64,000 nucleotides of DNA from Candidatus Hydrogenedentota bacterium (GCA_034408725.1 JAWXCN010000200.1:2871-66870), one strand, 5' to 3'. Counted from the first letter of the stretch, positions 504 through 31,508 are shown. Notes: generated by a model from the sequence alone, not told the origin. Numbers and translations are program-made.

Positions 504-1260
504 GATTGCCGCAATCATCGCAATGGGCCTATTGGCCGCGCCGTTTGCGTTCGCGCAGGCGCCCCCCCCGGACAACTCGCTCGGTCTGAATATTTTTCAG
601 ACTGCGCGCGATGCCGTGGAACCCCAACAACTTTCCACTACGTTATCCGTCTTTTTGTTACTCACGGTATTGACGTTGGCCCCGGCCATTGTTGTCATGA
701 CAACGTCGTTCACACGGATCATTGTCGTGCTGGGCTTCCTGCGGCAGGCAATGGCGACGCAGCAGACGCCTCCGAACCAGGTGCTCATCGGTCTCGCGTT
801 GTTCCTGACATTCTTCATCATGGCGCCAACCTATCAGCGGGTCTACAGCGATTCATTGCGTCCATACATCGACAATCAGATCGGACCGGAAGAAGCGTTG
901 ACACTTGGCATGGAGCCGGTGCGCGAGTTCATGTTTCGCCAAGTGTTGCAGCATCCGAAAGACCTCGCGCTGTTCATCAACATCGCGAAACTGCCGCGGC
1001 CAAACACGCCGGATGATGTGCCTACGCACGTCCTGATCTGCGCGTTTATTCTGAACGAAATGCGCGTCGCGTTCATGATCGGGTTCATCATCTATATTCC
1101 GTTTTTGATCATCGACATGGTCGTCGCGAGCACGCTGATGGCCATGGGCATGATGATGCTGCCGCCGGTTTTCATTTCGTTGCCGTTCAAGATCATCCTG
1201 TTCGTCTTGGCCGACGGTTGGTTCTTAATTGTGCGCGAATTGGTCAATAGCTTCGGCTAA
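490..1260 (+). CDS. fliP: Flagellar type III export apparatus protein FliP
   Basis: Signal peptide MSSGKIAAIIAMGLLAAPFAFAQA, then conserved FliP/SctR blocks (LTVLTLAPAIVVMTTSFTRIIVVLGFLRQA..., PNQVLIGLALFLTFFIMAP, LPFKIILFVLADGW). The ATG at 490 was chosen over the 418 ORF start because it gives a signal peptide and couples to the fliO stop. Confidence 0.9.
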   Translation: MSSGKIAAIIAMGLLAAPFAFAQAPPPDNSLGLNIFQTARDAVEPQQLSTTLSVFLLLTVLTLAPAIVVMTTSFTRIIVVLGFLRQAMATQQTPPNQVLIGLALFLTFFIMAPTYQRVYSDSLRPYIDNQIGPEEALTLGMEPVREFMFRQVLQHPKDLALFINIAKLPRPNTPDDVPTHVLICAFILNEMRVAFMIGFIIYIPFLIIDMVVASTLMAMGMMMLPPVFISLPFKIILFVLADGWFLIVRELVNSFG

Positions 1261-1291
1261 TTGGATCAAAAACGGCCTTTCGCTATACTCT

Positions 1292-1924
1292 TTAATAAAA
1301 AAACAGACGCTTCAACCAAGATACAAGTGAATCAACTTCCGGAACGTCGGGATCAAGATATCTCGCTGTGATAGCAGTTCCTAATGGCTTCCCAGGCTCC
1401 ACTTGCCAAGCCAGCCAGGTATGCACCATAGCCTTGGACTCCATACGTGGGGTAAACCGCTTCTCGTCCTCAGGGATAGATACTACGCTGGATTTAACAT
1501 GCTCGAACAGTGCCGAACCACTTGGAATCAAGAACTGTAAAAAGTCTTCTAAAGCTCCTGGGGTCGTATTGTCGGGCATAATCCAAAAACCTGCACGTGG
1601 CAAAAGTGAATTTGCAGGAGGTAAGATAACTGTACCGATAGAATCTGGGACAGTAGGTGGATTGGGGTAGCCTGCGCGTACTAATCGTGTGCGAAGCGCA
1701 TCCCACCTCGAAGCCACTTTAATGTCGGCATCGATAATGACTCCTAATGCAGCGAGATCGCTTTCCTTCAGCCGCACGGGGAGATTTTCCAGCAGCCGGT
1801 CAACGCCCCCTTGAGGTTTTATCTCGTCTATTTTGGGTAGGCCGCGATTTCCGCAAACGTGCTTTAACACATGTTCATCGTCTGGGCCCTCTACCAAAAG
1901 GACATTCTTAGCCATTGCGCTCAT
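1292..1924 (-). CDS. Small Toprim-like protein (DUF3226-like), partner of the upstream ATPase
   Basis: 210 aa. N-terminal LLVEGPDDEHVL (E12) and GVIIDAD (D65-x-D67) give the E...DxD Toprim pattern. C-terminal HTWLAWQVEPGKPLGTAITARYL matches my recollection of the DUF3226 family. Start overlaps the ATPase stop (ATGA). The gene is AT-richer than its flanks. Confidence 0.6.
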   Translation of the reverse strand: MSAMAKNVLLVEGPDDEHVLKHVCGNRGLPKIDEIKPQGGVDRLLENLPVRLKESDLAALGVIIDADIKVASRWDALRTRLVRAGYPNPPTVPDSIGTVILPPANSLLPRAGFWIMPDNTTPGALEDFLQFLIPSGSALFEHVKSSVVSIPEDEKRFTPRMESKAMVHTWLAWQVEPGKPLGTAITARYLDPDVPEVDSLVSWLKRLFFY

Positions 1925-3045
1925 CGCACCTCAATTCGTTCTCGCGCCGCGACGGCCAGCTCCTTTTCGTCGAATATCGTTGGAATAATTTCGTTTCCCT
2001 TTTTAGTTAATCGAATGAGAACACCTTCATCCGGTACTTCACTCGCAGCTTTTTGAAAGGCATCGATTGCATCCCAACTGTGCGAGGTGGCAACCACTTG
2101 GATATCGAGCCGAGTAGCGAGTTTGAAGACCGCCCGCCATGCATCTAGTTGAACAGTGTGATGCATGCCGTTCTCAAATTCGTCTACCAGAAGAATTCCA
2201 CTTTTCGCATTGACAAGCGACAAAATTATTCCGAACAAACGATTGAGTCCGTCACCAAAGGAACGAAGCGGCACGGGTCTCTGTATTTGCTTCGATCTGA
2301 CAATCGCTGTTCGCGCGTGATGCGCGCCCTCGCCACCTACCATTGATACTCCAATGATACCATCATCAATGATGCGAAGCGCTTCAACAACGTCTTCTTC
2401 GCGATCGGACAGTGCAATTTTGTCCCACAAGTATCCAAGGGTGGCTGTTCCTTCTCCTCCATATGGACTAACAAAAAGACATGTAAAGGCCTGATCTTCA
2501 ACTTCTGTCCTGAGTGCACTTCGATATCCAAAACGACGACGCAACCGGCTTAGAGGCAAGAGACGTTCTATGTTATTTGATTTCACACGCAAGGCGGGAT
2601 AGTCCTCTTCGCCTTCAAACAGTGACTGCTGCCTACTCACAAATCTTCTCGATCCGTCAGGCCCAAGTTCCTCTGAAAGCCAACAGGCTTCCAGTGAAAG
2701 ATCCAGTGAGCGTTGGCGACCATTAGACCGAATAACAATAGGTTTAATGTCCGTGGAAAACTGTGGAAAACCGTTAAAAAGACTTGACCATGGGAACATG
2801 CCTTCCGCATTTGCAGGTTGATTTTGGTCCTCAATTTCTCCTGTGTGCTCTTCTCTGAAACGAAGAATCTTGTTTATTATGCTAGGCGACGCATCCGAGA
2901 CAAGTATTTGAAGAGCTTCTAAAATTGATGATTTCCCGGTATTATTTCGTCCTGTAATGAGGGTGACCCGCCCAAGACCCGATAATTCAATTCGTTCTAG
3001 GGCACGAAACCTTTCTATCGTCAAAGTTTCAATTTTTGGCTTCAT
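1921..3045 (-). CDS. ABC-type AAA_15/AAA_21-like ATPase
   Basis: Walker A GRNNTGKSS, signature-like SFGDGLNRL, Walker B ILLVDEFENGMH, H-loop ATSHS. The ATG at 3045 is preferred (AGGGAG lies 7 nt upstream) because the longest-ORF start at 3078 falls inside the predicted promoter. Confidence 0.8.
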   Translation of the reverse strand: MKPKIETLTIERFRALERIELSGLGRVTLITGRNNTGKSSILEALQILVSDASPSIINKILRFREEHTGEIEDQNQPANAEGMFPWSSLFNGFPQFSTDIKPIVIRSNGRQRSLDLSLEACWLSEELGPDGSRRFVSRQQSLFEGEEDYPALRVKSNNIERLLPLSRLRRRFGYRSALRTEVEDQAFTCLFVSPYGGEGTATLGYLWDKIALSDREEDVVEALRIIDDGIIGVSMVGGEGAHHARTAIVRSKQIQRPVPLRSFGDGLNRLFGIILSLVNAKSGILLVDEFENGMHHTVQLDAWRAVFKLATRLDIQVVATSHSWDAIDAFQKAASEVPDEGVLIRLTKKGNEIIPTIFDEKELAVAARERIEVR

Positions 3046-3064
3046 ATAGGTGCTCCCTAGCTTC

Positions 3065-3093
3065 ATCATAAGCCTCACTACCTATTTTTCCAA
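3065..3093 (-). promoter_or_regulatory. Sigma70-like promoter TTGGAA-N17-TATGAT for the ATPase/Toprim cassette
   Basis: On the minus strand, TTGGAA (3088-3093), a 17-nt spacer, then TATGAT (3065-3070). This is about 20 nt upstream of the ATG at 3045. Confidence 0.45.
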
Positions 3094-3112
3094 ATCGGAG
3101 ACTAAAATACCC

Positions 3113-3961
3113 CTATGGTGATTCCTGCCGGCGAAAGCGTTCCACGAGTCGATTGCCGGACATTGACGCCGTGCGCAAACCTTCGTGCAATTGCTTCAGC
3201 GTTTCTTCGGGCATGTCCGGCGTGTACTTGCTGTTGGACGGTTCGAATTGGCTGACGTGCGCCGCGACGGCTTTTACTTTGGTTTCGTAGAGGCCGGTGA
3301 TGTCTACTTCATAGTTAGGCGCCTGCGAATAGTAGTAATAGACCAGCGGCACGGAGAAAGGCTCCAGCTTCTCATCGAGATAGTGTTGCGGATAGTACAA
3401 GTGCCATTGCGCGGCGATGAACGCATCCTGCGTGATGTTGGCGCCCATTCGGTGATCGGTTTTGTGCCATTGCACCCAGGTAGCGCCGGGATCGGGACTG
3501 AACACGATGTCGGGACGATACTTCTTGATCTGACGCGCGAGCTCGCCGCGCAAGTGCTTCGGATCGGCGTATTCCAGATCGCCGTCTTCGTAGCCAAGCC
3601 AGTGCAGATTTTCGATCGGAATGTCGACGACTTTCGACGCGGCTTCTTCTTCCGCGCGGCGGATTTGCGCGAGGCGTTCGCGGGTCATCTCGAGGTCTTT
3701 CGATCCGCGGTTGTCATTGGTGAAGATGACGACGTGGATCGTGTTCTTGTTTTTCGAGAGTAGCGACAGGGTCGCGGCCATGGCAAAATGTTCGTCATCG
3801 GGGTGCGGCGTGAATACGAGGATCGATTTGCCGGTGACGGTTTCGAGGCGGTCGGCATCGGCGACGGCGGGCGGGTTTTCGATCATCGGCGCAACCATCG
3901 GCTGGGCGGCAGCGAACATACCCAGGCCAACCAGAATTACGGCGGAACATAGAATGCGCAT
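3113..3961 (-). CDS. PIG-L/LmbE family deacetylase, secreted
   Basis: Motifs VFTPHPDDEHFAMAATL and HKTDHRMG. Signal peptide starts at MRILCSAVILVGLGMFAAAQP (internal ATG at 3961). Confidence 0.75.
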   Translation of the reverse strand: MRILCSAVILVGLGMFAAAQPMVAPMIENPPAVADADRLETVTGKSILVFTPHPDDEHFAMAATLSLLSKNKNTIHVVIFTNDNRGSKDLEMTRERLAQIRRAEEEAASKVVDIPIENLHWLGYEDGDLEYADPKHLRGELARQIKKYRPDIVFSPDPGATWVQWHKTDHRMGANITQDAFIAAQWHLYYPQHYLDEKLEPFSVPLVYYYYSQAPNYEVDITGLYETKVKAVAAHVSQFEPSNSKYTPDMPEETLKQLHEGLRTASMSGNRLVERFRRQESP

Positions 3962-5085: not shown

Positions 5086-6585
5086 TCACAGTATTTCTCC
5101 CTGTAAATACCAGCGCCGCCGTTTTTGATCGTGGTATATCCAGAGCCATCGGCCGCTACGCGTGCGCACATAGAAATACGTTCGCGCGATTTCGCGCATC
5201 CACCATCCGCCGGATACAATCTGGGGTCCGATGACTTCTTCGACCGGCCCTTCTGAAATCCCGGCTATCAGCCAACCGTCGGGTTCGTGCCGATCGCGGG
5301 GGGGCAGCGCAATTGGGGGCGCAAAAATCCGCCGAACCATTGGCCGCACCGCCACGCGCCTCGGATGCGGCAAGGCCAGCCGTTGAAGCGGTTCCCAGCC
5401 ATAGCGGGCTTCGGGCAAATGTCCTTCATGAAGATGCGCGCACACCACTGTGCCGTTTCCCAGTTCCGCGCGGATGCGCGCAAATGCGCGCAGCGCAGCC
5501 TCCGCATTCCGCAGCGCGGCATCGGGAAACAATCCAAGCTGTTGTTCATTTGCCGTGATGCCCGTCGCGCACATCCGAAACTCGATCACCGGCGCGGACA
5601 ACGACAATGCGCCCACGCGCAACCGCAGCAACTGGAGGAGCTGGTTTGCGTCCAGCGTCGGTGTTGCGGGAGTTATTTCCTCGCACAGTTCGCTGCCATC
5701 GCCCAGCCGCAACGTGATCCGCAGCGACGCGAGCGTTTCGTGGCGCGCAGCCAGTTCCATGAACAGTCCTTGCAAGCGTTCGGCAAACAGCGCCAGTAAT
5801 CGATCCAGATTGTCTTCCGGATAGTCCAGTTGCTCGCGCCGTTCGAGGGGTTCAAACAGCCGCTCGGCGTTCAAGGCGTCCCAGCCCTCGCCCCGCGCGA
5901 GTTCATGCAGGGCCGCCGCGCCGGCGCCAAACCTCGCGCGAATGCCTTCGGCGGGAAGGGCGATAAACGCGCCCAGTGTTTTCACGCCAAGTTTGAGCAA
6001 GGTATCGCGCAGGCGCGGATCGATCAGAACCCGCTCGATGGGAACTTGCCGCAGATGCGCGCGTTCCTGTTCGGACGATTGAAATACAAAGCCGTGCATG
6101 CTCGAATGCGCCGCCGCATAACTTCCGAACCGCGAAAACCCGACCGCGACCACCGCGCGGAAACCGGCATCGCGCAAATCATCGCGTATGAGCGCTGCCC
6201 ATGCTTCGAGCGAGGGATAGACCGCGCGCAACCCTGATGCGTCCAGCCAAAACACCCCGTGTTCGTGTTTGGCAGGTTCGATCCGCGGACTAAAGCACCA
6301 CAGCCGTTGTGTCATCGCGCGCACCGCCTCGGTGATCTCCGTCTCCGCTACTACGCCGCCGCGCAACTCGCGCGACAACGATAACCCCGCCGCGTAGCGC
6401 ATGCCCGGAAAAATACGGCTCGCATAGGCGAGTTCATTCGCCCACTGGATCAGGCCCAGCGGGGTGTCGCGGTCCACCACCACCACGGGCCGCACCGTCC
6501 AATCGGGATGCGCGCGCAACAGCAGTTGCAACGGCAGCCCCTGGATATCAACACAGGCCGTCCGGTCCACGGTACATCTCCCCAT
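5086..6585 (-). CDS. imuB: ImuB, Y-family polymerase-like mutasome subunit
   Basis: 499 aa. N-terminal ACVDIQGLPLQLLLRAHPDW is typical of ImuB. Lies directly downstream of, and overlapping, an ImuA-like gene. Confidence 0.8.
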   Translation of the reverse strand: MGRCTVDRTACVDIQGLPLQLLLRAHPDWTVRPVVVVDRDTPLGLIQWANELAYASRIFPGMRYAAGLSLSRELRGGVVAETEITEAVRAMTQRLWCFSPRIEPAKHEHGVFWLDASGLRAVYPSLEAWAALIRDDLRDAGFRAVVAVGFSRFGSYAAAHSSMHGFVFQSSEQERAHLRQVPIERVLIDPRLRDTLLKLGVKTLGAFIALPAEGIRARFGAGAAALHELARGEGWDALNAERLFEPLERREQLDYPEDNLDRLLALFAERLQGLFMELAARHETLASLRITLRLGDGSELCEEITPATPTLDANQLLQLLRLRVGALSLSAPVIEFRMCATGITANEQQLGLFPDAALRNAEAALRAFARIRAELGNGTVVCAHLHEGHLPEARYGWEPLQRLALPHPRRVAVRPMVRRIFAPPIALPPRDRHEPDGWLIAGISEGPVEEVIGPQIVSGGWWMREIARTYFYVRTRSGRWLWIYHDQKRRRWYLQGEIL

Positions 6586-7174
6586 GGTTCCAACCCGGGG
6601 TGCGGCGCTTGTCCTTTACGATTTGCACCGTACACGTAAAACAGTCGTGTCCCATGCGCCGCCGGTCTGTTTCTCCGCGCAACGACACCAGCGATCCGCC
6701 CGCGGTATCGCGGCGTTCCCGCCGCGTAATCATCACCAGCGCGGTTTGATGTTTTTTTGCAAGCCCCACCAGCCGCGTCTGGATGCCGAGCGGCAGCTTC
6801 ATTCTGTTTCCGACATCCAGCACCACCAGCGCAAAGGCGCCGGAGCGCAGCAGCGTGTCCGCCACGTGCCATCCCTTGCTTTCATCGGTCACACGCACTA
6901 CAGGCAGCGCGGACAGGTCAATGCCCGATGCGTCGAAGTCCGGTGGGAAAAAACCAAACCCCGGTCCACCGATCCATGTCGCCAGCCCGCCACGTTCCTG
7001 CGCCTCCACTACCAGTCCCGCGCACACCGTCACCGCAGACGATTTCGATGCCCCGCCCAGTTCCACAAAGCGGCCCAGAACTGTGTCCAGCCCCCAAGCC
7101 TTAGCGCGCAAAGGTAATTGCGATAATTCGCGCGCGGTTTGCATGGTATTGAATGCCAATGACTTAGTGTCCAT
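6548..7174 (-). CDS. imuA: ImuA, RecA/SulA-like mutasome subunit
   Basis: RecA-fold-like GRFVELGGASKSSAVTVCAGLVVEAQ and ALVVLDV, positioned before imuB. The ATG at 7174 has GGAG 7 nt upstream. The longest ORF starts at a TTG at 7195. Confidence 0.7.
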   Translation of the reverse strand: MDTKSLAFNTMQTARELSQLPLRAKAWGLDTVLGRFVELGGASKSSAVTVCAGLVVEAQERGGLATWIGGPGFGFFPPDFDASGIDLSALPVVRVTDESKGWHVADTLLRSGAFALVVLDVGNRMKLPLGIQTRLVGLAKKHQTALVMITRRERRDTAGGSLVSLRGETDRRRMGHDCFTCTVQIVKDKRRTPGWNHGEMYRGPDGLC

Positions 7175-7241
7175 TTGACTGCTCCATAAGCTCAAAAGAC
7201 GGGGCCGGAAATAGAAAAGCCGGATTTATGCACCACTCAAT

Positions 7242-28414: not shown

Positions 28415-28814
28415 AACTAACCATTAACTGCTGATGCAGCGCGTTAGGCTTATCCGGTCGTTTTACAGGGCAGGAGACCAGAATCGTATAGTCGTTATCT
28501 GGTCCACTCAGGGGGACAACAGGCTACGCGCAACCTGTTGCGTGCCGCACTTCGTCGACGCTTAGTGACTTCATGCCATGTACCGCCATGATCCAGCCGT
28601 TGAGTGCGTGTAATGTCTTCGCTGGGATGAGCATTTTGGCCCATCCTTTCCAGCATAGTCATTCATATCTTTTGAAAAAAGTGCCTCGATGCGCCTGGGT
28701 TCTGGTGCCTCATCGAGCGGTGTAAAAGTTACGTTGAAGCCGTGGAGTTTAGGGTTTATGATCGCGGCCACGATGCGAAGGGATCGCCGATGAGCTACAT
28801 CAAAAAGCCTAATT

Positions 28815-29114
28815 GTGAAACGAGACGATTGGAGAGTGACCGTGTATAACCTTCGGTCAATCGTAGGTGGAGTGATGTTGCTCGCTATAGCAGGCTGCGT
28901 AACCAATCAACCGTCCACAACTCTAGACTTGTCAATGTATACCACCGAGCAATTGCTGATTGAACGCGAGAGGTTAGTGGATCCTGGATTGGTGGCCATT
29001 CTCGAAATTGAAATAAGAAAGCGCCCGAATGCAGAGTTGTTTGTTATTGAACCAAAGGATTCGGGCGCAGAAGCGAACCGGCGGCAGGTGACGGCATGGA
29101 GCTTAAAATTATGA
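28815..29114 (+). CDS. Hypothetical small lipoprotein (low-GC islet)
   Basis: Lipobox VMLLAIAGC. No recognisable family. Start uncertain (alternative GTG codons). Confidence 0.4.
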   Translation: MKRDDWRVTVYNLRSIVGGVMLLAIAGCVTNQPSTTLDLSMYTTEQLLIERERLVDPGLVAILEIEIRKRPNAELFVIEPKDSGAEANRRQVTAWSLKL

Positions 29115-29320
29115 TCAAAATGTCGCGTCTGGAAATACTGGATTGTCTTTTTGCGGCATACGCTATGTTTTATTTTATTTTTGAAGTGTCTCGAGTTGTT
29201 CTCGGCTTTGCCATCTCAATGTTGAGTGTACTATTGGTCATGCCGCTGGTGCTATACATTGTCATTCGCTATCAAGGATTAATAATTGCCTCTATCCATG
29301 CTTCTAAGTGGTTTCGTTAA
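29096..29320 (+). CDS. Hypothetical 2-TM small membrane protein (low-GC islet)
   Basis: 74 aa with two hydrophobic helices. Overlaps the previous ORF by 19 nt. Confidence 0.35.
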   Translation: MELKIMIKMSRLEILDCLFAAYAMFYFIFEVSRVVLGFAISMLSVLLVMPLVLYIVIRYQGLIIASIHASKWFR

Positions 29321-29517
29321 ATGCCTTTGCCGATTCGATTATGGTGAACGTGCGCCGTGCCTGGTCCCATACTTAACCAGCACGACGTAACGATGCTGGC
29401 GCACCCGAACCCCGACATTGTGCGACTTTGGGTTTATTGAACGGGTCAGCGAGGCCGCGCCAGTGGCCGGCAATGACGTTTTTTGGGTGTTTGACCAGAA
29501 CGAAACGCTTGTCATGC

Positions 29518-29838
29518 ATGGAGCACTATGATCACGGAGCGTGCAGATTGAGTACGTTCGCCGAACATTTAAGAATGTTCATAATCTTTGGATGCGGCGG
29601 CTTGACCGCATTGGCTTTCGCACATTTTCACTGGCGAGCGCTCAACCAATCCACACCGCGAGAACCAAGGTATTTTGGAATTCCAATGTTCGTGGACGAG
29701 ATTGCGATTAAACCGGGCTGGCGCTGGTTGGCTATTTTTAGTTGTGTAGTTGGATATGCTCTAGCCGCTCTTTTTCTCGGATGCTTGGTATTGTATACAT
29801 TGGGGCTGATATTGTTGGCTGTGTTGCCGGAGGGATAG
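29518..29838 (+). CDS. Hypothetical membrane protein (low-GC islet)
   Basis: The internal ATG (MEHYDHG...) gives about 106 aa with three predicted TM helices. No family recognised. Confidence 0.4.
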   Translation: MEHYDHGACRLSTFAEHLRMFIIFGCGGLTALAFAHFHWRALNQSTPREPRYFGIPMFVDEIAIKPGWRWLAIFSCVVGYALAALFLGCLVLYTLGLILLAVLPEG

Positions 29839-30047
29839 TCGCTTGCGATTTCCGCAGCGCCCCACACCCCCAGCCTTTCAAGCCAAAGGAAGTGCGCGAT
29901 CTCTAAGAATAAGCTACGGGGCGCAACGCTGACACGGCGTGGTATGCATCGAGATTGCCAATGCTTTACCAAGGGCCATCACGTCCTCGCTTAGCTCACG
30001 ACAACCGGCGCGATGGTATATGCTGCCGGTTGTGGTAAAAGTTTTGT

Positions 30048-30212
30048 ATGAATAAGATTAAACTATCAGGCTTTGTGCTCGCCCTATTATTTGGCGCGTT
30101 TATGGTTGTATACGGCGGAATTGACGATAGCCCCGGCGGACAGTTGTTGGGACTACTGGCAGTCATTGCCGGAATTGTAGGGGTAATAAGGGGGATGAAG
30201 AAGAGATCGTAG
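30048..30212 (+). CDS. Hypothetical 54-aa 2-TM membrane peptide (below the ORF-track length cutoff)
   Basis: Translated by hand: MNKIKLSGFVLALLFGAFMVVYGGIDDSPGGQLLGLLAVIAGIVGVIRGMKKRS. Two hydrophobic helices and a basic tail. Confidence 0.3.
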   Translation: MNKIKLSGFVLALLFGAFMVVYGGIDDSPGGQLLGLLAVIAGIVGVIRGMKKRS

Positions 30213-30227
30213 TTGAGAGGCTCTATA

Positions 30228-31073
30228 TCATCCATCCTTGCCCGCATTTTCTTGCGAAGGCATAGAATCAAGTAGCATTTCCACGTCGGCCGGCGCGTAG
30301 CCGGAGTAGTGGCTATTGACGAATCCAAACACTGGTACGTGGACTTTTGATATTTCAGTAATAACCCGTGCCCATTCCTCGATATCGCTGCGTCGATCAA
30401 CAACGGTCTCGCCCCATGATTTCGTGATGCGTTCTATCGCGTAGCGGTCACCCAAAAGCCGAATATATGCAAACGGGCCAGTAAGTATGTCCGCGAACCG
30501 CATCAGTTCCTTGGGCCGGTACATGTACGGGTGGTCAATCAGCGCAAGCGTGACATTACTTTCCTTCAAGAGCCGGAAAAGGGGAGGCCCCAGCCACGTT
30601 TTGTTGCGCACTTCCACCGCGAATTGAAAACCAGATGCCGGAAGGCAGGCGAGAAACGGACCAAGCCTGTCCATGAACATTTGCGCGGAAACGTTTTTGG
30701 CCTTGGCAAAATAGGGGAACTGAAAGAGGATGGGTCCGAGGTGGTCGCCCAGATGCTGCATCGCCGCGAGAAACTCGTTGATGTCCTTTTCGCAGTCAAT
30801 AAGAAACTTCGCATGGGTAATAGTTTGCGGGGCCTTGGCGGCAAACAGGAAACCTTCCGATGCGCGATCGCGCCAGCCCTGTATCGTTTCGATCCGGGGG
30901 ATGCCGTAGAAGGTCGAGTCGATCTCGACGGCGTTAAACCGTTTGGCGTATTCGCGTATGAATTCAGTGGGTTCTTTCGTGGTGTAGACCTTGCCGATCC
31001 ACTCGCGATAGCTCCAACTGCATGTGCCCAGGCGAATCGGGGCCACCACCTTAGAATCCATCATAAACATCAC
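30228..31073 (-). CDS. DUF72 (YecE-like) family protein
   Basis: GTCSWSYREW, FNAVEIDSTFYGIP and FAVEVRNKTW are typical DUF72 blocks. Confidence 0.8.
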   Translation of the reverse strand: MMFMMDSKVVAPIRLGTCSWSYREWIGKVYTTKEPTEFIREYAKRFNAVEIDSTFYGIPRIETIQGWRDRASEGFLFAAKAPQTITHAKFLIDCEKDINEFLAAMQHLGDHLGPILFQFPYFAKAKNVSAQMFMDRLGPFLACLPASGFQFAVEVRNKTWLGPPLFRLLKESNVTLALIDHPYMYRPKELMRFADILTGPFAYIRLLGDRYAIERITKSWGETVVDRRSDIEEWARVITEISKVHVPVFGFVNSHYSGYAPADVEMLLDSMPSQENAGKDG

Positions 31074-31267
31074 CTAATTACGCAATTAAGATCCGGCTGT
31101 TCCACGCGCTGCATTGTTCGATACAATCGCGTTTGCCTTCAACGAGTCACTTAATTCGTCACCAACCACAACGGTTTCTATCGGGTTACAGCGGAGAAAA
31201 ACCCTCAATCCTTCCAATCCCGCCAACCAACGATCTGCACAAAACCGCTGATATTATTGGCTAAAAG

Positions 31268-31339
31268 TGCCCCGAGCCAGAATCGAACTGGCGTCTAATC
31301 CTTAGGAGGGACTTGTTCTATCCACTGAACTATCGGGGC
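31268..31339 (-). tRNA. tRNA-Arg (anticodon CCU)
   Basis: Folded by hand from the reverse complement. Acceptor stem GCCCCGA/TCGGGGC. D arm GTTC-AGTGGATA-GAAC. Anticodon arm AGTCC-CTCCTAA-GGATT. T arm GCCAG-TTCGATT-CTGGC. Discriminator A. CCA is not encoded. Confidence 0.85.
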
Positions 31340-31508
31340 AAGGAAATACGATGAGGACTTTGTGCCCATGCCATTGGCGCGGATAGAAAGATTATGTGAA
31401 TTCGTTGATTTGTTCAACCTGGCTGGCGCGTGGCGATATTGGCGGTTCTCGCGCGCGACGCGTTACACTGTTTCTTCTCCAAGCGTAAATGAATTGCGAG
31501 GGTAGACC

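Follow-up and report, generated by a model that had tools for sequence, protein, structure and literature searches.

A low-GC gene pair for an ABC-type ATPase and a DUF3226 protein in a Candidatus Hydrogenedentes genome: a member of the candidate defence system PDC-M38

What is a pair of overlapping, AT-rich genes doing between fliP and a PIG-L deacetylase gene in a Candidatus Hydrogenedentes chromosome? The question is raised by a stretch of 64,000 nucleotides (called the window here) from a metagenome-assembled genome of this group, in which an open reading frame (ORF) listing shows two minus-strand ORFs at 1292..1924 (210 amino acids, aa) and 1921..3078 (385 aa in the longest form). An earlier note, written from the sequence alone, had pointed out that the two ORFs overlap by ATGA, as they indeed do, and had proposed that an ABC-type ATPase and a small Toprim-like protein form an uncharacterised defence module akin to PARIS and OLD. 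The answer that we reach is close to this proposal: with a probability of roughly 65%, the cassette is a horizontally acquired anti-phage module of the abortive-infection or toxin-antitoxin-like kind that belongs to the candidate system PDC-M38 and combines a sensor ATPase with a nuclease effector in the manner of PARIS and AbiL.

Judged by sequence, the pair is a clear member of PDC-M38, since both proteins fit the paired PADLOC models over their full length and since the A gene lies upstream of the B gene in the same orientation: The ATPase matches the PDC-M38A model PDLC04611 with an E value of 2.1e-87 (residues 6-374 on profile positions 3-383 of 383), and the small protein matches the PDC-M38B models PDLC04624 (5.4e-47) and PDLC04623 (5.2e-37), both from end to end. 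That the two genes form a functional operon and belong to this system is, to us, hardly in doubt. PDC-M38 is one of the 145 candidates that were classed as 'untested' by Payne et al. 2024 (bioRxiv 10.1101/2024.01.29.577857; PADLOC-DB v2). These candidates were predicted from their embedding in Hma, BREX, DISARM or type I restriction-modification (RM) loci, and Supplementary file 8 of that study assigns the cassettes CAS_00138 and CAS_00155 to PDC-M38. A cold-seep study assayed eight other PDC candidates, PDC-M38 not being among them, and the literature that we searched contained no paper on DUF3226, PF11536, PDC-M38 or the plasmid protein accessions. The pair is thus already catalogued, yet uncharacterised, and it is not a new kind of system; the earlier note was right to call it uncharacterised, but it is not unlisted. 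A further PDC-M38A model, PDLC04607, has 715 positions and is about twice as long as the ATPase, which aligns only to approximately 385-715 of it; some members of the family therefore carry about 380 additional residues at the N-terminus.

The large protein belongs to the ABC ATPases of the SMC/Rad50 type, and its nucleotide-binding site is complete. It matches AAA_21 (3e-19, 70.5 bits) and AAA_15 (3e-18, 66.9 bits) in Pfam, both above the cut-offs. All the motifs that had been read from the sequence, GRNNTGKSS, SFGDGLNRL, ATSHS and the Walker B motif given as ILLVDEFENGMH, are present, and their key residues are invariant or at least 90% conserved in 66-87 homologues. The AlphaFold2 (AF2) model of the ATPase (pLDDT 79, pTM 0.82) has 381 fold matches in the PDB at E <= 1e-3, SMC and Rad50 heads leading; the top matches, with a probability of 1.00, are SMC4, Rad50 and SMC together with three defence proteins, the retron-IA ATPase, Septu PtuA and Gabija GajA. 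Between the two half-sites, the model contains a beta-rich segment (about residues 103-164) and disordered loops (66-82 and 171-184) but no coiled coil. Among the other defence models of PADLOC, AbiLi (PDLC02336, 1.7e-57) is covered from position 2 to 340 of 340, two AriA models of PARIS follow with 3.4e-22 and 9e-19, and HEC-01A is matched weakly (5e-14). Moreover, the N-terminus matches TsOLD (6p74, 7e-5) as well as the Old and GajA profiles. NCBIfam offered nothing specific: its ATPase matches, among them weak ones to the RecF, Rad50 and RecN models at the N-terminus, are far below the cut-offs and are restricted to the P-loop region. In PHROGs, only unnamed families matched the ATPase, and none matched the small protein.

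The small protein is a DUF3226 protein, as the earlier note had suggested: Pfam family PF11536 is matched with 7e-66 (222.4 bits at a cut-off of 27), residues 6-208 covering positions 1-207 of 208. The family is large, with 2,480 clusters at 50% identity (E <= 1e-3) in many bacterial phyla; its best 150 representatives are 129-254 aa long, mostly stand-alone proteins of about 200-230 aa, and include no fusions. The two acidic motifs noticed before, the E12-bearing LLVEGPDDEHVL and GVIIDAD with D65 and D67, are present, and E12 and D65 are essentially invariant. In a set of 150 diverse DUF3226 relatives (residue numbers refer to the 210-aa form), E12 is found in 145 of 145 and D16 appears as D or E in 144 of 146, whereas D65 is kept in 149 of 150; at position 67, 130 relatives have D and 19 have N, which makes D or N in 149 of 150. 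N119, E126 and K164 each recur in no fewer than 147 of the 149 relatives that are aligned there without a gap. The AF2 model of the small protein (pLDDT 88, pTM 0.85) places E12 directly after strand b1 (residues 6-11), lets b3 (57-65) end in D65-x-D67, and has M-P-D-N following b4 (110-116). Its predicted order beta-alpha-beta-alpha-beta-alpha-beta is that of the Toprim core, and the acids sit at the C-terminal ends of the strands: E12 and D16 after b1, D65-x-D67 after b3, then D118/N119 and E126. In this model, the layout of the acids is that of the two-metal Toprim site in the OLD nucleases and in AriB of PARIS.

Profile comparisons point in the same direction. OLD-like_TOPRIM of Pfam is matched by 33 of the 150 relatives (best 6e-6) and DUF4435 by four, and no other family recurs. 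In a PDB search with the family profile, AriB (E 0.1) was the sole natural protein, aligned on LLVEGxxD; the designed repeat proteins that also appeared were rejected as spurious matches to the LEDF helix. With hhalign, the N-terminal 36 columns (b1, Glu and a1) align to a 51-sequence AriB-family alignment with a probability of 91% (E 1e-6), the segment E12-G-P-D15-D16 falling on AriB E26/D30. The C-terminal half has an invariant K164, H168 and W-Q-x-x-P-G-x-P-x-G, for which we found no counterpart. A search of PDB sequences with the small protein gave no match at E <= 10, hence no solved structure, and the phage GenBank collection contained neither a DUF3226 homologue nor a match to the AriB fragment. 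The top Foldseek hits of the model (succinyl-CoA synthetase, lumazine synthase, LarB, TIR) are generic three-layer alpha/beta proteins and were set aside as fold-class noise; primases and topoisomerases appear at weak scores only. It is likely that DUF3226 has an acidic site of the Toprim type on a divergent scaffold, the assignment being one of motifs and profiles that is limited to the N-terminal core. We consider it reasonably probable that DUF3226 proteins are metal-dependent nucleases. At four loci, the small gene is frameshifted or truncated while the ATPase ORF is kept (L004 9034-10651, L005 10013-10364, L075 2643-3269, L093 1245-1811; L numbers designate the fetched loci). These broken copies suggest decay of the putative effector, as expected of a costly toxin-like gene.

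The two genes are a near-obligate, co-evolving pair. Among the 105 loci that were fetched, 77 DUF3226 matches have at least 1.2 kb of upstream sequence, and in 74 of them an ATPase homologue lies directly upstream on the same strand, mostly with junctions of -4 to +4 nucleotides. Of the three exceptions, that in L025 is an artefact of the ORF start, its ATPase being visible, and two come from a single decayed copy in L005, of which they are fragments. The pairwise distances of the two proteins are strongly correlated (Mantel r 0.86, 0 of 2000 permutations, 64 non-redundant pairs). The nearest relatives of both proteins share 61-68% identity with those of the window and are scattered over at least ten phyla (Planctomycetota, Verrucomicrobiota, Lentisphaerota, Kiritimatiellia, Acidobacteriota, Aminicenantes, Anaerolineae, Syntrophia and others), which argues for horizontal spread. 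A scan of genome contigs with a single protein found five loci, of which L004 and L005 are degraded.

The composition of the cassette tells the same for the window itself. The GC content is 0.45-0.51 over 1200-3200 and 0.58-0.63 in the flanks; for the cassette it amounts to 0.476, compared to a window mean of 0.571 (standard deviation among equally long stretches 0.026, z = -3.6), and nowhere else in the 64 kb does a stretch of this length reach so low a value. At third codon positions, the GC content is 0.40-0.46 in the two cassette genes versus 0.66-0.75 in six neighbours. The visible AT-richness reported before is thus borne out, and the cassette is compositionally foreign and horizontally acquired. 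In its vicinity, there is no defence gene, mobility gene, tRNA, flanking direct repeat or Rfam element: in this genome, the cassette is a solo insertion.

The relatives live in different company. We evaluated 25 non-redundant loci whose flanks extend for at least 4 kb in either direction, and about one third of them adjoin or sit inside known defence systems or mobile-element hotspots: six have Hma, DISARM-like, Septu, PD-T4-6 or PDC-S02 genes as neighbours, and single loci are found by a type V-B CRISPR system, an RM enzyme or the end of a P2-like prophage. In L025 (2-10470), the pair is inserted between HmaA and HmaB-HmaC (all Hma matches with E = 0), and in L089 (2512-14609) it is flanked by a DrmMI/type IIG methylase of 1608 aa and, on the other side, by an HKD+SNF2 helicase of 1138 aa; these two are textbook cases of embedding. 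The same helicase is present in L084. The pair is surrounded by Septu PtuB, PDC-S02 and HmaC in L058, by a PD-T4-6-type kinase and HmaC in L046, and it is accompanied by HmaC in L082. The HmaC homologues differ in their make-up: in that of L082 (11635-15042), the DUF499 ATPase is preceded by a fused Swt1-like HEPN domain (1.7e-31), an extra putative RNase module which that of L058 is without. In one lineage (L009-L012), the pair is 3 kb away from type V-B CRISPR-Cas; about 2.8 kb without called genes separate it from cas2 in L009 (10980-13805), presumably a CRISPR array. Of the IMG/VR loci, L101 has a gene for a fused methylase-BsuBI/PstI restriction enzyme directly upstream of the pair, L097 has a tail-fibre gene nearby, and L098 has a protein nearby whose N-terminal domain (DUF6538) we take to be of the integrase type. 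On a Plesiomonas megaplasmid (L015), the pair ends a P2-like tail module, reportedly a hotspot of the type described by Rousset et al. 2022.

Small plasmids are the other habitat of the pair. On a 6.4-kb ColE-type Citrobacter plasmid (NZ_CP055541), it is the near-sole cargo, since apart from one small gene only functions of replication and mobilisation are encoded there; it also occurs on Acinetobacter plasmids of 10-14 kb. The ColRNAI Klebsiella pneumoniae plasmid of L105 (NZ_CP024435.1, 1-4167) otherwise encodes only Rop and a helix-turn-helix protein, and carries a divergent pair that matches AbiLi with 2e-58, PDC-M38A with 8e-44 and PDC-M38B with 4e-11. The related ATPase matched 127 plasmid records of Klebsiella, most of which are about 4.2 kb long, as well as 4,693-bp plasmids of E. 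coli and Klebsiella. The small gene of the Citrobacter plasmid (L013 3440-4018, 193 aa), annotated as 'tRNA modification GTPase', precedes the pair by 75 nucleotides and has the same orientation; a PADLOC search with its product was empty, and it could be an accessory component or a gene of the mobilisation region.

Finally, transposase or plain housekeeping genes surround the pair in L006 and L007/L008. Loci of this kind fit the remark of Payne et al. 2024 that embedded candidates are often 'solo'. The association with defence genes, which the earlier note had put forward for checking together with the co-conservation of the pair, is recurrent, its enrichment being a qualitative one. Recurrence of a gene inside or near defence systems is the very signature from which defence systems are predicted (Payne et al. 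2024), and we regard a defence function, as suggested by context, as quite probable. The refutation tests proposed in the earlier note, as far as they can be run in silico, did not refute its interpretation, which is thus supported.

How could such a pair work? By analogy with PARIS, the ATPase would dimerise around ATP like other ABC heads and act as infection sensor and regulator, and it may hold the DUF3226 nuclease inactive via the b1-a1 segment. Its counterpart in AriB is both the site of the catalytic Glu and the piece by which AriB docks onto AriA, above the ATP sites. Control is probably exerted via b1-a1, the sole piece that is conserved with AriB. A phage-derived trigger would then cause the ATP-dependent release or activation of the nuclease, which may cut a nucleic acid, be it tRNA like PARIS or DNA like OLD and Gabija, so that the infected cell would stop growing. 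Sequestration and release in the PARIS style is, in our view, conceivable rather than probable for this pair.

Several observations weigh against an anti-phage sensor-nuclease module. PDC-M38 still bears the label 'untested' (Payne et al. 2024) and has no published phenotype, and in the same study HEC-01, another candidate composed of an ATPase and a Toprim protein, gave no defence in the authors' assays; thus, the architecture is no guarantee of a measurable phenotype. ATPases of the OLD family are not always defensive, as Cran1 acts in the archaeal cell cycle. Defence genes are absent near the cassette in this genome and at several other loci (L006, L007). For the small protein, the hhalign match to AriB is confined to 36 columns, its own OLD-like_TOPRIM score is 15.1 bits and thus below the Pfam cut-off of 23.2, and D67 is replaced by N in 13% of the relatives. 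Foldseek comparison of its model with the PDB and BFVD gave no match at E <= 1e-3, and the OLD Toprim structure 6nk8 (BpOLD) ranks only 49 (E 0.23, TMq 0.38). The Toprim-like character claimed in the earlier note finds support in the conserved acids, the OLD-like_TOPRIM matches of relatives and the hhalign match to AriB, but not in a significant structural match.

The best-placed competitor accepts the two activities and changes their target: as in OLD and Gabija, the ATPase and the DUF3226 nuclease would stay in one complex and cut invading DNA directly, with neither a released toxin nor self-targeting. OLD enzymes of classes 1 and 2, which have the same two domains in one polypeptide, do cut or nick DNA, GajA and PtuA are among the fold matches of the ATPase, and the strongest profile matches of the relatives are to OLD-type Toprim rather than to DUF4435 (33 versus 4 of 150). 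A position inside systems that contain methylases, such as Hma and the DISARM-like loci, would suit a DNA-targeting module, too. However, ATPase and effector are always encoded separately, as they are in PARIS and AbiL, without a fusion in the 150 best representatives, the only segment that can be aligned with a solved partner is the AriA-docking b1-a1 of AriB, and a life as near-sole cargo of tiny plasmids fits an addictive module of the toxin-antitoxin type better. We therefore judge direct cutting of invading DNA by a permanent complex to be unlikely.

The same plasmids invite the idea that the pair is a selfish addiction or stabilisation module of plasmids and mobile elements for which any anti-phage effect is incidental or absent. 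Carriage as near-sole cargo of the 6.4-kb Citrobacter and the 4,167-bp Klebsiella plasmids and the 127 Klebsiella plasmid records would agree with this, as would the many chromosomal copies, that of the window included, that stand alone without defence neighbours; PARIS itself acts as a type II toxin-antitoxin pair. The repeated embedding in Hma and DISARM-like operons and the positions beside CRISPR-Cas, RM and Septu genes are unexpected for pure plasmid maintenance, which makes this explanation a rather improbable one, although addiction and defence are not mutually exclusive. Very improbable, finally, is a housekeeping, DNA-repair or cell-cycle pair without any phage conflict, similar to RecF, SbcC and Rad50 or to Cran1: the weak RecF, Rad50 and RecN matches, the SMC and Rad50 heads among the best folds, the non-defence role of the OLD-family ATPase Cran1, the ImuA/ImuB-like cassette 2 kb away in the window and the Y-family polymerase adjacent in L003 are outweighed by NCBIfam matches that are far under the cut-offs and cover the P-loop only, by a composition that indicates recent horizontal acquisition, by a patchy distribution of 61-68% identical copies across phyla, by neighbourhoods that are unconserved save for recurrent defence genes, and by carriage on 4-6 kb plasmids, which is unlike core repair.

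The coordinates of the anti-phage module proposed here and of its motifs are compiled in Table 1.

Table 1. Positions of the genes, motifs and junctions of the cassette in the window, and what each annotation is based on
Feature	Position	Strand	Basis or remarks
ATPase gene, PDC-M38A, 374 aa	1921..3045	-	Pfam, PADLOC, homologue N-termini, AF2 fold
DUF3226 gene, PDC-M38B, 210 aa; putative Toprim-like metal-dependent nuclease effector	1292..1924	-	Pfam, PADLOC, AF2
ATGA stop/start overlap	1921..1924	-	Sequence; junctions of -4 to +4 nucleotides dominate in 74 homologous loci
Upstream spacer, 67 nucleotides, after the PIG-L stop	3046..3112	-	GGGAG 3052-3056; TTGGAA-N17-TATGAT 3065-3093
Walker A / P-loop GRNNTGKS, residues 32-39, K38	2929..2952	-	G32, N34, N35, G37, K38, S39 invariant in 87 homologues
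ABC signature-like SFGDGLNRL, residues 262-270	2236..2262	-	G264, D265, G266, N268, R269 invariant in 87 homologues
Walker B ILLVDEFEN, residues 284-292	2170..2196	-	L285, L286, D288, E289, E291, N292 invariant in 87 homologues
H-loop ATSHS, residues 319-323, H322	2077..2091	-	A319, T320, H322, S323 invariant in 87 homologues
E12-G-P-D15-D16 codons, putative first Toprim acidic motif, C-terminal end of b1	1877..1891	-	Conservation, AF2
D65-A-D67 codons, putative Toprim DxD, end of b3	1724..1732	-	Conservation, AF2

The start of the ATPase gene at 3045, which the earlier note had preferred, is supported since the N-termini of the homologues and their lengths in the databases (373-378 aa) agree with it: most of 66 homologous ORFs start exactly at the aligned Met (M-x-x-x-I-x-x-L), and the GGGAG, which resembles a ribosome-binding site, is located 7 nucleotides upstream of this ATG. 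The other possible starts are GTG 3078, which gives the longest ORF, and ATG 3066 of the public gene calls (381 aa). The promoter-like TTGGAA-N17-TATGAT is present as described. As a promoter of the cassette's own it is statistically unsupported, because it matches at 9 of 12 positions and such matches are no commoner in the region than in shuffled sequences (4 versus 2.7 +/- 1.8); read-through transcription is equally possible, given that the PIG-L gene ends 67 nucleotides upstream on the same strand. A terminator scan downstream of the pair found none. The ATGA overlap suggests that the ATPase and DUF3226 genes are translationally coupled. The small gene may start at 1924 (JGI, 210 aa) or at the in-frame ATG 1915 (NCBI record P0001, 207 aa), and in the latter case the overlap would vanish.

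The flanking genes are those named before: fliP (FliP, 8.7e-78), which converges on the small gene, and the PIG-L deacetylase gene (4.9e-28), oriented like the ATPase gene. Past fliP, the public contig of the same organism continues with fliO, fliN, motB and motA; beyond PIG-L, genes for a 3-keto-disaccharide hydrolase, an ImuB-like Y-family polymerase, a RecA-like ImuA and an arylsulfotransferase follow. The ImuB-like gene (IMS, weak, 5.8e-5) overlaps the ImuA gene (1.3e-5) at 5086-7195 on the minus strand, and the two resemble a mutagenesis cassette, with no adjacent dnaE2 in the part examined. We rejected PIG-L and ImuA/B as parts of the system, as neither recurs beside the pair elsewhere; the Y-family polymerase gene next to the pair in L003 is the lone exception, which we consider to be chance. 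Farther away, at 28500-31500, there is a second ORF-poor patch of low GC content (0.47-0.51) that adjoins tRNA-Arg(cct) at 31267-31339 on the minus strand. Its only clear genes encode a DUF72 protein (30231-31073, minus strand) and, just before it, a PEMT-like methyltransferase, and an Rfam search of the patch was empty. It may be the remnant of an integrated element.

For the window, the outcome is one more apparently intact, horizontally acquired copy of PDC-M38, alone in a Hydrogenedentes chromosome. If validated, the pair would add a compact two-gene class of 1.75 kb to OLD, Gabija, PARIS and AbiL, and it would provide a second split system, to be compared with PARIS, for infection sensing by an ABC ATPase and for the restraint of a nuclease. 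The small plasmids of Klebsiella pneumoniae, Citrobacter and Acinetobacter are an easy experimental entry in Enterobacteria, and carriage on plasmids makes the pair relevant to the prediction of host range in phage therapy. To specialists, the architecture will not come as a surprise, and the family is already in PADLOC; yet this is a large family for which we found no publications. A more far-reaching idea, which we regard as doubtful, is that the DUF3226 pairs constitute a fifth, mechanistically distinct class of split OLD-like immunity. In such a class, a minimal 24-kDa Toprim nuclease might choose a substrate other than the tRNA-Lys of AriB by means of its C-terminal module, the beta-rich insertion of the ATPase rather than AriA-type pores might sense another class of phage trigger, and the pair might also serve as the addiction and defence cargo that keeps tiny Col-type plasmids widespread in clinical Klebsiella.

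The analogy to PARIS and OLD drawn in the earlier note led into the right neighbourhood, as the profile matches to AriA, OLD-like_TOPRIM and AriB demonstrate, and AbiL has to be added on the strength of AbiLi. In PARIS, AriA and AriB form an AriA6:AriB3 complex from which AriB is released upon triggering by Ocr, and the AriB dimer then cleaves tRNA-Lys; the two proteins form a type II toxin-antitoxin-like pair, are ranked as 'class 4' of OLD, and co-evolve. The pair studied here likewise consists of separate, co-evolving genes for an ABC ATPase and a small effector with acidic motifs, and is likewise found at prophage hotspots and on mobile elements. The effector shares a homologous N-terminal b1-Glu-a1 segment with AriB, LLVEGxxD occurring in both (hhalign 91%). 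The two-metal site of AriB is built from E26, D30, D88, E90 and E122, and defence is lost in the mutant E26A (Burman et al. 2024). In DUF3226, the spacing of a Glu and an Asp four positions later, followed by a DxD/E, corresponds to E26, D30, D88 and E90. The differences are equally clear. The small protein has no match to AriB in PADLOC (E <= 1) or to DUF4435 in Pfam, and AriA is a distant third for the ATPase, behind PDC-M38A and AbiLi. The ATPase has 374 aa (about 42 kDa, calculated) and a beta-rich insertion, whereas AriA has 55 kDa with coiled-coil and trigger-pore elements; the effector has 210 aa compared to about 310 aa in AriB, a DxD in place of the D-R-E of AriB, and the unique C-terminal W-Q-x-x-P-G-x-P-x-G module. 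Judged by these features, the pair is not a member of PARIS, and DUF3226 is not included in the list of effector domains of AAA_15/21 defence ATPases given by Burman et al.

AbiL of Lactococcus is also encoded by two genes, for an ABC ATPase and a predicted Toprim/OLD-like partner, and our ATPase fits AbiLi from end to end; the small protein has no AbiLii match at E <= 1, the presence of an AbiLii model in the profile library being unconfirmed. With OLD of class 1 (P2 Old, TsOLD) and class 2 (GajA), the pair shares the logic of an ABC ATPase and a two-metal Toprim domain, the latter being putative here. In those enzymes, both modules reside in one polypeptide of 530-630 aa, whereas they are separate genes here, the structural similarity of DUF3226 to the Toprim region of BpOLD is weak (E 0.23, TMq 0.38), and neither a helicase of the GajB type nor a reverse transcriptase gene is adjacent to the pair. 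The pair is not an OLD or Gabija enzyme, since its genes are split and a helicase partner is lacking. HEC-01 resembles it as an ABC ATPase with a Toprim-like partner embedded in Hma but consists of other hidden Markov model families. With PDC-M38, finally, we found no difference: the order of A and B, the coupled junction and the embedding in Hma and DISARM-like loci all recur in independent metagenome loci.

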